Sequence record: OR539220.1
DNA from: Escherichia phage vB-Eco-KMB40
Direction: 5' to 3' (one strand)
DNA: 64,000 nt
This document shows positions 19,102 to 44,891 of this stretch, in pieces. The notes beneath the pieces are model-generated. The model saw only the letters and a list, made by a program, of their open reading frames with translations. It did no database searches and was not told the DNA's origin. The first letter of the stretch is position 1. Every line of letters starts with the position of its first letter. The translations under genes were made by a program, and so were the position numbers.

Positions 19102-19128
19102 AAATAAAAAGGGAGCCCGAAGGCTCCC
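19102..19128 (-). terminator. intrinsic terminator (GGGAGCC-TTCG-GGCTCCC plus TTTTTATTT on minus strand)
   Basis: Perfect 7-bp GC stem with tetraloop directly after nucleotidyltransferase stop. Confidence 0.6.
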
Positions 19129-19130
19129 TA

Positions 19131-20144
19131 TCATTTATAATAACTTCGGTGGTTTTCAAGATAGACCTTCTCAAGGAAGTCATCCCAGAAACTCATGTCT
19201 ACTTTTTGCTGCATACCGTTCTTAGAAGCTTCAGTAGATGCTGCTTCTACTTGATCGACCACATCTTCCAAAAACTCTTGAACTGTTTTAAATGGATGTT
19301 TACCCAACTTCACGTCGAGAATAAATGGAGCATCTTGGAGTGGATAAACCAAGTCACCAGTTTTGTAAATTTCCAATAGTTGGAGTCCACCACGACAAGC
19401 ATGACTCAGAGCTTTCCAGTCAATGCCTTCATTAGCTTCGGCTTTACGAGCACGTTCACCATATTCAGCATCTAATTTATTCAGTGACTGCTTAAGCTCA
19501 ATAAGAGAAAGTGTTGTCTGATATTTACGACCCAACACAGTGTAGAACGTTTGCGGGCCTGTTTTCTCGTGATTATGGAACACCCATTCACAGAATTCGT
19601 TTTCTGGAAGACGATGCTTAATATCTTCAACTTTAGTGCGACGCTGCTTAATAGAACCATCTTCTTGGTAATCAACCCATTGCTCGGGGATTTGATTAAC
19701 TACTTTCAATACATCACGTAATGCAGCCAAACGAGAACCCTTGACACCGTATTTAGAAGCTTGCTTGCGAACATATCCTAAATAGGATTTCATGTTAGTT
19801 GTATAAAAACGAGAACGGTTGTCTTGAATAAACTTCCACACATCAGGCAAATCAGATTTAACCACTAGTTCAGGTGGAGTGTGAAGCATATCCAATGCTA
19901 CAGTTTCACCATCTGCTGCTAATTTAAAGAAATATTTAAGACTGTATAGTTCATGGTCAATATCATCTTTAGTGTTTTTAGATGATGTGTTGTTAGTGTT
20001 TTTACTCATGTGCTCTTTGACATTTCCGATAAGAATATCACGAGCAGGAGGAACAAAAATTTCTTTAAAATCTACATCAGATTCTGGGGTAGAAGTTCCA
20101 TAAAGATGACTACCAAAATAGCTTTTCATTACTGTTTTCATCAT
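19131..20144 (-). CDS. nucleotidyltransferase-fold protein (Pol-beta superfamily), 337 aa
   Basis: N-terminal motif GSHLYGTSTPESDVDF (G-S...D-x-D) and downstream acidic ALDMLH; helical C-terminal region. Confidence 0.55.
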   Translation of the reverse strand: MMKTVMKSYFGSHLYGTSTPESDVDFKEIFVPPARDILIGNVKEHMSKNTNNTSSKNTKDDIDHELYSLKYFFKLAADGETVALDMLHTPPELVVKSDLPDVWKFIQDNRSRFYTTNMKSYLGYVRKQASKYGVKGSRLAALRDVLKVVNQIPEQWVDYQEDGSIKQRRTKVEDIKHRLPENEFCEWVFHNHEKTGPQTFYTVLGRKYQTTLSLIELKQSLNKLDAEYGERARKAEANEGIDWKALSHACRGGLQLLEIYKTGDLVYPLQDAPFILDVKLGKHPFKTVQEFLEDVVDQVEAASTEASKNGMQQKVDMSFWDDFLEKVYLENHRSYYK

Positions 20145-20614
20145 TCAGCCTTATATTCAATAACAGGACATACTTTAGCTTTACGAGCTTTTAAAAATTC
20201 AACGATAATCGATTTCTTGGGTTGAATAGGAGGTAAACCTTTATACGCCCTATCAATATTTTCTATGTGTAAAGCATAATCCTTTTTCCATTTATAATCT
20301 TTATATTTTTCATGCAAATGCGCAGGAATAACAAATGAACCGATAATAAGTAAAACAACCAAAAGCGCAAGTATAAATGCTGATGGAAGAAGAGTCCATA
20401 AACTACCGAAAATAAGCCAACGTTGTAGGCTTTCTGCACAAATAATTGTTAGACCTGCGAGTATAGTACATCCGAAAAAAGAAACGAAAAATGTAGGGAT
20501 AACAATAGACCAAAAGTATGCACACAGTGTCTTAGGTCGTTTCCATTCGTCGTTAAACAGTTTGAATAATTTATAGTGCCAAGAGTTTTCATTAATAATC
20601 ATAATTATAATCAT
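20141..20614 (-). CDS. integral membrane protein (157 aa, multiple TM helices)
   Basis: Hydrophobic segments throughout; ATGA overlap with both neighbours. Confidence 0.5.
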   Translation of the reverse strand: MIIIMIINENSWHYKLFKLFNDEWKRPKTLCAYFWSIVIPTFFVSFFGCTILAGLTIICAESLQRWLIFGSLWTLLPSAFILALLVVLLIIGSFVIPAHLHEKYKDYKWKKDYALHIENIDRAYKGLPPIQPKKSIIVEFLKARKAKVCPVIEYKAE

Positions 20615-21132
20615 CCTTTCATTGAAGGTGTAACAGTTGTTAAATACTTAATCATAGCCTCAGCTTCTGATTTTGATAATGAAATTTCTCCATTGTTTTG
20701 ACGAATAGAAATAAAATCCGGATGACGGTCACCACCAGCTTTTAAAACACACATATAAGTATCAGTTTCATCTTCAATATTTGAAATGATTGAAGCAGTT
20801 CCACATGAATGCGGTTTTTGATAAATCAATACAGCTTTTCTTCCGCCATTTGACTGTTCATAAACTTTTAATACATCAAACAAATCACTTCTTTTATCAA
20901 TAGCTAAAATGTTATTTTCATCTTCAACGTTAAATCCTTCGGATACTTCATAAAGTGTTACCCATAAATCGCCAATATCAATAACAGCGTTCACTTTTCC
21001 ATGACTTTCAAGAGCATGACAAATTTTCTTGATTTCGTCATAACTCATTTTAATAATATCATCTCCTTGAATAAGAAAGATGTCATTTTTAAATTCAACA
21101 CGAATTAAACCACTTCCACTTGAAATAAACAT
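20611..21132 (-). CDS. hypothetical protein (173 aa)
   Basis: ORF track. Confidence 0.45.
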   Translation of the reverse strand: MFISSGSGLIRVEFKNDIFLIQGDDIIKMSYDEIKKICHALESHGKVNAVIDIGDLWVTLYEVSEGFNVEDENNILAIDKRSDLFDVLKVYEQSNGGRKAVLIYQKPHSCGTASIISNIEDETDTYMCVLKAGGDRHPDFISIRQNNGEISLSKSEAEAMIKYLTTVTPSMKG

Positions 21133-21138
21133 ATTTCC

Positions 21139-21748
21139 TCACTTTGAAATCATAGTTGGAATGACAGAATCAAGATAATTCTTTAGCGCAATAGCTTCGT
21201 CTTTGGTAAATGTGACAATATGTGCTCGAGAATCATCATTTTGGCGAACAAGTACGACATCGCCATCTTCATAAGAAGTCTTGACATCCAAAGTCGTAGT
21301 ATAGTTTGCAGCTACTGGATTAATAATGCTAGCACCGCGATCTTTAGCCCATTGAAGTTTAACCTTTTCGGGTGTTTCGACTGTTTCAGATTCCAAGAAT
21401 TCTTTCACCTTGGCAACGAATGTTGCCCAATTGTTGATAGAAAGACACATAAATTCAGTTTCAATAGGCAACGAATGTTGCCCAATTGTTGATAGAAAGA
21501 CACATAAATTCAGTTTCAATATTACCGCCGTAAAGGCCACGATAAAAACGAACTTGGAGGTCGCCTGTAATATTAGTTACACCGGTAACTCCTGAGGGAG
21601 CATAAGATAAAATCGCAGCCAGTTCCATAGGAAGAATAGTAATACTATCGTCTTCCTGCGTCAGAACGTATACATTATCACGTTTTTCGATAACCAGGTC
21701 ACCGAACAAATCAGTTGTTTCAATTACAGCTTTCATATTATTTACCAA
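21139..21748 (-). pseudogene. gene interrupted by a 55-bp tandem duplication (ORF fragments 21461..21748 and 21139..21540)
   Basis: Both fragments share peptide IETEFMCLSINNWATFVA encoded by the two repeat copies; removing one copy restores a single ~184-codon frame. Confidence 0.55.
21412..21521. repeat. perfect tandem direct repeat, 2 x 55 bp
   Basis: ggcaacgaatgttgcccaattgttgatagaaagacacataaattcagtttcaata occurs twice back to back (21412..21466, 21467..21521). Confidence 0.9.
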
Positions 21749-21923
21749 TTAAAGTTTCAATATAAGAATCAAGATTTACTTTAGCTTCTTCCATAAGAAT
21801 TTTGTATTTAATCTTGTTAGCATGTCCGGAGAAAGCTGATTCATCAATAATTGTTGATGTATGAACAGCTCTACTATACGTCTCAATTAATTCTCTTAAT
21901 TTAAAAGCCTGCTCACTTGTCAT
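21738..21923 (-). CDS. hypothetical small protein (61 aa)
   Basis: ORF track. Confidence 0.4.
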   Translation of the reverse strand: MTSEQAFKLRELIETYSRAVHTSTIIDESAFSGHANKIKYKILMEEAKVNLDSYIETLIGK

Positions 21924-43180: not shown

Positions 43181-44891
43181 TAACCTTAATTGGTTTGTTG
43201 GTGTTGTTGAAGATAGAATGGACCCATTAAAATTAGGTCGTGTTCGTGTTCGTGTGGTTGGTCTGCATCCACCTCAAAGAGCACAAGGTGATGTAATGGG
43301 TATTCCAACTGAAAAATTACCATGGATGTCAGTTATTCAACCTATAACTTCTGCAGCAATGTCAGGAATTGGAGGTTCTGTTACTGGACCGGTAGAAGGA
43401 ACTAGAGTTTATGGTCATTTTTTAGACAAATGGAAAACTAACGGAATTGTCCTTGGCACGTATGGTGGAATAGTTCGCGAAAAACCGAATAGACTTGAAG
43501 GATTTTCTGACCCAACTGGGCAATATCCTAGACGTTTAGGAAATGATACTAACGTATTAAACCAAGGCGGAGAAGTAGGATATGATTCGTCTTCTAATAT
43601 TATCCAAGATAGTAATCTAGACACTGCAATAAATCCCGATGATAGACCACTATCAGAGATTCCAACTGATGATAATCCAAATATGTCAATGGCTGAAATG
43701 CTTCGCCGTGATGAAGGATTAAGACTAAAAGTTTATTGGGATACAGAAGGATATCCGACAATTGGTATTGGTCATCTTATCATGAAGCAGCCAGTTCGTG
43801 ATATGACCCAAATTAATAAAGTTTTATCAAAACAAGTTGGTCGTGAAATTACCGGAAATCCAGGTTCTATTACAATGGAAGAAGCGGTAACTTTATTTGA
43901 ACGCGATTTGGCTGATATGCAACGTGACATTAAATCACATTCTAAAGTAGGACCAGTCTGGCAAGCTGTCAACCGTTCTCGTCAAATGGCATTAGAAAAT
44001 ATGGCATTTCAGATGGGTGTTGGCGGTGTAGCTAAATTTAACACAATGTTAACTGCTATGTTAGCAGGAGATTGGAAAAAAGCATATAAAGCCGGTCGTG
44101 ATTCATTGTGGTATCAACAAACAAAAGGCCGTGCATCCCGTGTTACCATGATTATTCTTACGGGGAATTTGGAATCATATGGTGTTGAAGTGAAAACTCC
44201 AGCTAGGTCTTTGTCGGCAATGGCTGCTACTGTGGCGAAGTCTTCTGATCCAGCTGACCCTCCTATTCCAAATGACTCAAGAATTTTATTCAAAGAACCA
44301 GTTTCTTCATATAAAGGCGAATATCCTTATGTGCATACAATGGAAACTGAAAGTGGACATATTCAGGAATTTGATGATACCCCTGGGCAAGAACGATATA
44401 GATTAGTTCATCCAACTGGAACTTATGAAGAAGTATCACCATCAGGGAGAAGAACAAGAAAAACTGTTGATAATTTGTATGATATAACCAACGCTGATGG
44501 TAATTTTTTGGTAGCCGGTGATAAAAAGACTAACGTCGGTGGTTCAGAAATTTATTATAACATGGATAATCGTCTTCACCAAATAGATGGAAGCAATACA
44601 ATATTTGTACGTGGCGATGAAACTAAGACGGTTGAAGGTAATGGAACTATCCTAGTTAAAGGTAATGTTACTATTGTAGTTGAAGGTAATGCTGACATTA
44701 CAGTTAAAGGAGATGCTACTACTTTAGTTGAAGGAAATCAGACTAATACAGTAAATGGAAATCTTTCTTGGAAAGTTGCTGGGACAGTTGATTGGGACGT
44801 TGGTGGTGATTGGACAGAAAAAATGGCATCTATGAGTTCTATTTCATCTGGTCAATACACAATTGATGGATCGAGGATTGACATTGGCTAA
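43164..44891 (+). CDS. 5: baseplate hub / tail lysozyme gp5 (cell-puncturing needle)
   Basis: 575 aa; central lysozyme domain paralogous to gene e (MLRRDEGLRLKVYWDTEGYPTIGIGHL); C-terminal VxGxxT beta-helix repeats. Confidence 0.95.
   Translation: MEMISNNLNWFVGVVEDRMDPLKLGRVRVRVVGLHPPQRAQGDVMGIPTEKLPWMSVIQPITSAAMSGIGGSVTGPVEGTRVYGHFLDKWKTNGIVLGTYGGIVREKPNRLEGFSDPTGQYPRRLGNDTNVLNQGGEVGYDSSSNIIQDSNLDTAINPDDRPLSEIPTDDNPNMSMAEMLRRDEGLRLKVYWDTEGYPTIGIGHLIMKQPVRDMTQINKVLSKQVGREITGNPGSITMEEAVTLFERDLADMQRDIKSHSKVGPVWQAVNRSRQMALENMAFQMGVGGVAKFNTMLTAMLAGDWKKAYKAGRDSLWYQQTKGRASRVTMIILTGNLESYGVEVKTPARSLSAMAATVAKSSDPADPPIPNDSRILFKEPVSSYKGEYPYVHTMETESGHIQEFDDTPGQERYRLVHPTGTYEEVSPSGRRTRKTVDNLYDITNADGNFLVAGDKKTNVGGSEIYYNMDNRLHQIDGSNTIFVRGDETKTVEGNGTILVKGNVTIVVEGNADITVKGDATTLVEGNQTNTVNGNLSWKVAGTVDWDVGGDWTEKMASMSSISSGQYTIDGSRIDIG

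Follow-up and report, generated by a model that had tools for sequence, protein, structure and literature searches.

Results

A perfect 55-bp tandem repeat lies in a T4-like phage sequence

The window, that is, the whole 64-kb stretch of DNA analyzed, comes from a T4-like phage (Tequatrovirus) and has a G+C content of 35%. Hundreds of records from Escherichia and Shigella phages match it at 97-100% identity, and the top match across 24 kb reaches 97.6%. The window is on the same strand as its relatives and collinear with them, and the repeat site falls ~53-57 kb from the start of their records, a placement that would suit a re-oriented genome without proving one. The features at the locus are as follows.

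20611..21132, minus strand: intact adjoining MobD.1 paralog, 173 aa, with PF24449 and PF24448
21139..21411, minus strand: 3' part of the mobD.1 homolog, carrying the end of the N domain and the y05I C-terminal domain, in a different frame from the 5' fragment
21139..21540, minus strand: downstream open reading frame, 133 aa from a mechanical GTG, containing ...LPIETEFMCLSINNWATFVAKVKEF...
21461..21736, minus strand: 5' fragment of the mobD.1 homolog, 91 aa when counted from the ATG at which relatives start
21461..21748, minus strand: upstream open reading frame, 95 aa from TTG, ending in ...GGNIETEFMCLSINNWATFVAY and a stop
21412..21466: first 55-bp unit (copy 1), GGCAACGAATGTTGCCCAATTGTTGATAGAAAGACACATAAATTCAGTTTCAATA
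21467..21521: second 55-bp unit (copy 2), with the same sequence as copy 1
21466/21467: copy-to-copy junction, ...CAGTTTCAATA/GGCAACGAATG...
21412..21427, and again 21467-21482: hairpin GGCAAC-GAAT-GTTGCC with a perfect 6-bp stem, formed by the first bases of the unit and coding (..WATFVA..)

The initial annotation had described a 55-bp unit occurring twice, back to back and without a mismatch. Direct string comparison showed that the two abutting copies (21412-21466 and 21467-21521) are identical strings, and Tandem Repeats Finder (TRF) reported the same array (21412..21521, period 55, 2.0 copies, 100% matches, no indels, score 220), confirming this description. It is the only perfect tandem repeat in the TRF output for the window. 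Moreover, it is the sole perfect tandem duplication with a period of 15-399 bp in 270,461 bases, comprising the window and ~206 kb of related T4-like DNA. Chance alone could not produce a perfect tandem repeat of this length in 64 kb.

The match at an offset of 55 is exactly 55 bases long, which leaves 0 bp of microhomology at either border of the repeat. At the left edge, the T at 21411 preceding copy 1 mismatches the A that ends the unit, and at the right edge, the T at 21522 following copy 2 mismatches the G that begins it. The hairpin at the start of the unit is probably coincidental. We considered it as a clue to mechanism and gave it little weight; it is ordinary coding sequence in all single-copy relatives too.

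Elsewhere in the window, an imperfect 24/48-bp tandem array (71-83% matches) at 44631-44762 aligns to the gene for a 575-aa gp5-like baseplate hub protein of phage NiC89. We take this array to be ordinary, as it fits the 8-residue repeats of the gp5 C-terminal beta-helix.

The duplication splits a homolog of T4 mobD.1

The gene cut by the duplication is a homolog of phage T4 mobD.1 (NP_049711), which encodes a 180-aa “y05I-like putative transcription factor”. It sits between nrdC.11 and mobD.2/rI/tk, the same place as in T4. Removal of one copy yields a single open frame of 555 nt, or 184 codons counted from TTG, as the initial annotation had anticipated; homologs are annotated from the ATG at 21736, which gives 543 nt and 180 aa. 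The restored 180-aa protein matches both y05I families, scoring 110.2 bits against PF24449 (T4_y05I_N; gathering cut-off 24.9) and 64 bits against PF24448 (T4_y05I_C; gathering cut-off 27). It also matches phrog_1502, a family of unknown function, at 1.8e-66. The restored product thus resembles T4 MobD.1 in both Pfam domains and in location, and differs in that the gene is split here by the duplication and that a 173-aa paralog and a 157-aa membrane protein occupy the position of T4 mobD.

The upstream (21461..21748) and downstream (21139..21540) open reading frames are in different frames because 55 leaves a remainder of 1 when divided by 3. The same 18 residues, IETEFMCLSINNWATFVA, are present in both and are encoded by different copies. 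The frame relationship and the shared residues had both been claimed from the sequence, and both held.

In the protein, the duplication occupies roughly codons 72-90, within the N-terminal domain. The 5' fragment (21461..21736) spans most of the y05I N-terminal domain and reaches a stop one codon past the crossing from copy 2 into copy 1. Neither the GTG at 21540 nor the TTG at 21748 is likely to serve as a true start. Separate translation of the C-terminal open reading frame was considered and judged improbable, as no Shine-Dalgarno-like motif was found upstream of the GTG at 21540 or of the internal ATG at 21450.

Several further observations concern the neighborhood. At 20141-21132 (minus strand), the 173-aa MobD.1 paralog and a 157-aa predicted membrane protein (phrog_944) replace the T4 HNH gene mobD, so that the window carries two y05I-like genes side by side, the mobD.1 homolog and the 173-aa paralog. 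A 61-aa open reading frame at 21738-21923 (minus strand) belongs to DUF7438 (PF24219) and is called a “helicase loader” by RefSeq and PHROG 4859; in this stretch, which continues upstream to about 22700, four or five DUF7438 paralogs follow one another in ESh25 and other relatives. The “helicase loader” label on DUF7438 proteins looks like annotation propagation without a tested function. Just downstream of nrdC.11, an A run at about 19106-19111 lacks one base relative to ESh25, RB18, NiC89 and T4. Read on the gene strand, this run forms the T-tract of a terminator-like hairpin, GGGAGCC-CGAA-GGCTCCC. The shortened run is intergenic and therefore harmless to coding.

Relatives and public collections contain a single copy

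The initial annotation had proposed a comparison with related genomes. A 1,701-bp query around the repeat produced 40 listed matches, all of which (40/40) span 1,644-1,646 bp, ~55 bp short of the query, and align in two pieces. The record of ESh25 has one copy and is otherwise 100% identical to this query, flanks included. Likewise, an 80-bp probe over the junction aligned in two pieces onto a single 55-bp span in all 25 of the records listed.

We also searched for the junction itself. A 40-bp probe centered on the copy-to-copy junction, which can attain significance only where two copies exist, found no match in 50,697 phage records. A 27-mer junction pattern was likewise absent from IMG/VR, JGI metagenomes and GTDB genomes. 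Exact matches to the 91-aa and 133-aa products of the split open reading frames were sought, and none were on record.

Eleven other contigs encode the exact 173-aa or 337-aa neighbor proteins, five of them Logan assemblies from public read sets. These contigs are 95-99.8% identical to the window and none represents the same phage. All six unit-bearing contigs (ESh25 and the five Logan assemblies) encode the identical 173-aa neighbor and have one copy only. Each unit-bearing contig aligns to the window as a pair of HSPs, with the break precisely at 21466/21467 and a 55-nt overlap on the contig side. Among the relatives listed (65 phage match rows and five Logan assemblies), we found neither copy-number variation nor a diverged two-ORF form; each unit-bearing relative listed has a single copy. 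One of the Logan contigs, ERR14047520, aligns to the window with 18 gap openings over 4.2 kb and has several shortened open reading frames (among them MobD.1 at 144 aa and antiholin at 64 aa), which probably reflect an error-rich assembly rather than real variants.

These comparisons bear on the idea of a reversible on/off switch, in which the unit would toggle between one and two copies by recombination and thereby phase-vary the putative transcription factor MobD.1. The idea has some appeal, since the repeat is perfect and its length is not a multiple of 3, and unequal recombination would restore the frame precisely. As in contingency loci and slippage duplications, an out-of-frame tandem repeat in a coding region would in principle allow precise reversion. 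However, contingency loci are known to use short units in many copies, whereas here there are only two long copies without bordering microhomology. Copy number should vary among related strains at a phase-variable locus, but the relatives listed have one copy each, no polymorphism appeared in them or in the metagenomic assemblies, and the junction is absent from all four collections searched. In addition, recombination would find no repeat to use in going from one copy to two, which makes the “off” direction a rare illegitimate event. We therefore consider a switch highly improbable and rank it as the least likely of the readings.

The identity of the flanks also bears on a second proposal, namely that the repeat is the scar of a misrepaired MobD homing-endonuclease cut suffered by a mobD-less phage during co-infection. 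In T4, nrdC.11/mobD.1 is the insertion site of mobD, which encodes an HNH endonuclease whose target is given as unknown (PMC2988022); mobD is absent from the window. In the one paper found to name MobD.1, it appears only as a flank of this insertion site (PMC2988022). The proposal is pure inference, however. Break repair in T4 proceeds by homology-directed synthesis, which copies a donor and does not duplicate 55 bp, and the flanks match ESh25 at 100% identity and contain no co-conversion tract. Nor does a repair scar account for the coincidence of the repeat length with an assembler k of 55. We regard such a scar as very unlikely.

Repeat length and borders point to a probable assembly or finishing artefact

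The largest k used by default for shorter reads and in metaSPAdes is 55, according to the SPAdes manual. When the SPAdes graph contains a cycle, the output contig ends with the same k bases with which it begins. The T4 genome is permuted and packaged by the headful.

The repeat was compared with what an untrimmed overlap of this kind would leave. Its length equals the SPAdes/metaSPAdes default final k, the odd number 55. The copies are identical and abutting, with 0 bp of microhomology, and their flanks are collinear with the relatives. The genome is of a type that assembles as a circle, being a Tequatrovirus with 97-100% identity to T4-like records. Finally, neither the relatives listed nor the independent assemblies, which are of other isolates, contain the duplication.

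The absence of microhomology also separates the artefact from a genuine event. According to the competing explanation, the phage stock acquired a real and very recent 55-bp tandem duplication through illegitimate recombination or template switching, perhaps aided by the hairpin. The sequence as given does carry two copies, and their identity is what a recent event predicts. Since mobD.1 has neither a reported function nor known essentiality, breakage of the gene may leave the phage viable, and with the intact 173-aa paralog adjoining, the loss could be tolerated. The 6-bp-stem hairpin lies exactly at the unit boundary and could in principle stall replication. However, a few shared bases are normal in slippage, and the borders have no short direct repeat and zero microhomology. 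Zero microhomology is predicted by a k-mer overlap and generally not by slippage, and therefore counts in favor of an artefact. Moreover, the length equals the assembler default exactly, and the variant occurs in no relative listed and in none of the five read-level Logan assemblies. T4 recombination should readily collapse a perfect 55-bp tandem repeat, so that such a repeat would become fixed in a stock only through selection or a bottleneck. Overall, we consider a genuine duplication unlikely. Little credence can likewise be given to its more specific form, in which a de novo 55-bp duplication, nucleated at a hairpin and free of microhomology, would have only just inactivated the putative transcription factor MobD.1 of a natural T4-like phage and could be reversed precisely by recombination.

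We conclude that the 55-bp duplication is very probably an assembly or finishing artefact and not a feature of the phage DNA. Three observations favor this reading: a repeat length that matches the SPAdes k of 55, borders without microhomology, and a junction that was found in no other sequence searched. Most likely, the repeat is an untrimmed SPAdes contig-end overlap, where we infer the assembler and k from the number 55 alone. The initial annotation had offered an assembly artefact, a reversible switch and a recent pseudogenization as possible causes; the first is thus the favored one, the second received no support, and the third is retained as a minority reading.

The quality of the remaining sequence is consistent with the artefact. 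Apart from the net 55-bp insertion, no indel relative to four relatives exceeds 19 bp; most measure 1-6 bp, and they frequently come in offsetting pairs. This profile is compatible with a clean assembly of short reads that suffered one finishing error.

Record ends of related phages were examined in the same light. None of the three records checked (ESh25, Sf22 and teqdroes) has an untrimmed overlap at its ends. The teqdroes record (MN895438.1) starts and ends within mobD.1, which is unannotated there, and its end-to-start join is 18 bp short (AGTACGACATCGCCATCT) relative to the window. This 18-bp deficit is another circularization-junction error in the same gene, showing that errors at such joins occur in this phage group. 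We considered whether assemblies preferentially break near this site, as Sf22 has a record end 6 bp before the gene and teqdroes has one inside it, and judged this a coincidence because Sf22 evidently was started at a gene boundary and teqdroes breaks 143 bp away.

Discussion

We propose that the repeat arose as follows. From a circularly permuted and terminally redundant T4-like genome, a de Bruijn graph assembler would yield a cycle. SPAdes or metaSPAdes would linearize this cycle into a contig whose final k bases equal its first k bases. The end overlap could then have become internal by any of three routes: the contig may have been rotated to a conventional start without trimming; two contigs with a common 55-bp end overlap may have been pasted together; or the window may have been cut over the end-to-start join of a contig flagged as circular. 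In each case, the untrimmed overlap would appear as a perfect internal 55-bp tandem duplication at an arbitrary position, here inside the mobD.1 homolog, where it would break the frame. The boundary 21466/21467 would then mark the old end-to-start join of the contig.

The value 79 is a k among the Shovill defaults, a link that is not made in the study of przondovirus assemblies cited in this section. Terminal repeats of ~55 bp have been documented for SPAdes contigs (PMC12509680, PMC12697183), and according to COBRA, the end overlaps of metaSPAdes contigs are as long as maxK (PMC10914622). Circularization has been described as a common assembly artefact (PMC8785237). The repeat reported here resembles the terminal repeat of a circular SPAdes contig in its exact length of 55, perfect identity, lack of microhomology, arbitrary position and circle-assembling genome type. 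It differs in that the copies are adjacent and internal instead of lying at the two ends of the record, which needs an extra, unobserved step.

Internal repeats have also been reported. Shovill/SPAdes assemblies of przondoviruses contained ~79-bp internal repeats in 7 of 10 phages, and Sanger sequencing identified these as artefacts in most (PMC10438801). In phage Tokugawa, one ~79-bp repeat lay inside the genome, beyond the presumed terminal-repeat region (PMC10438801). As in those phages, a repeat of assembler k-mer length occurs within a finished phage genome. The przondovirus repeats were not supported by read depth, a feature of that study (PMC10438801). They differ from the present case in length (79 versus 55 bp) and in belonging to another phage group with defined terminal repeats; moreover, they were mostly close to or within the terminal-repeat regions, and the artefact was proven experimentally there, whereas we deduce it here.

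If the duplication were real, mobD.1 would probably be inactivated, leaving a 91-aa N-terminal fragment with the C-terminal part untranslated, and the allele would be a truncation that is effectively null. It would represent a modest case of recent gene inactivation in a T4-like phage, affecting a gene of unknown function beside an intact paralog. If the knock-out were revertible in addition, the sequence would be a snapshot of a cycle of duplication and collapse, amounting to a crude genetic toggle.

If the duplication is an artefact, as we favor, the source genome is 55 bp too long and mobD.1 has been wrongly split into two open reading frames. The value of the finding would then be in quality control: automated screening of phage assemblies for exact tandem repeats of 55, 77, 79, 99 or 127 bp should precede any biological interpretation of such repeats.
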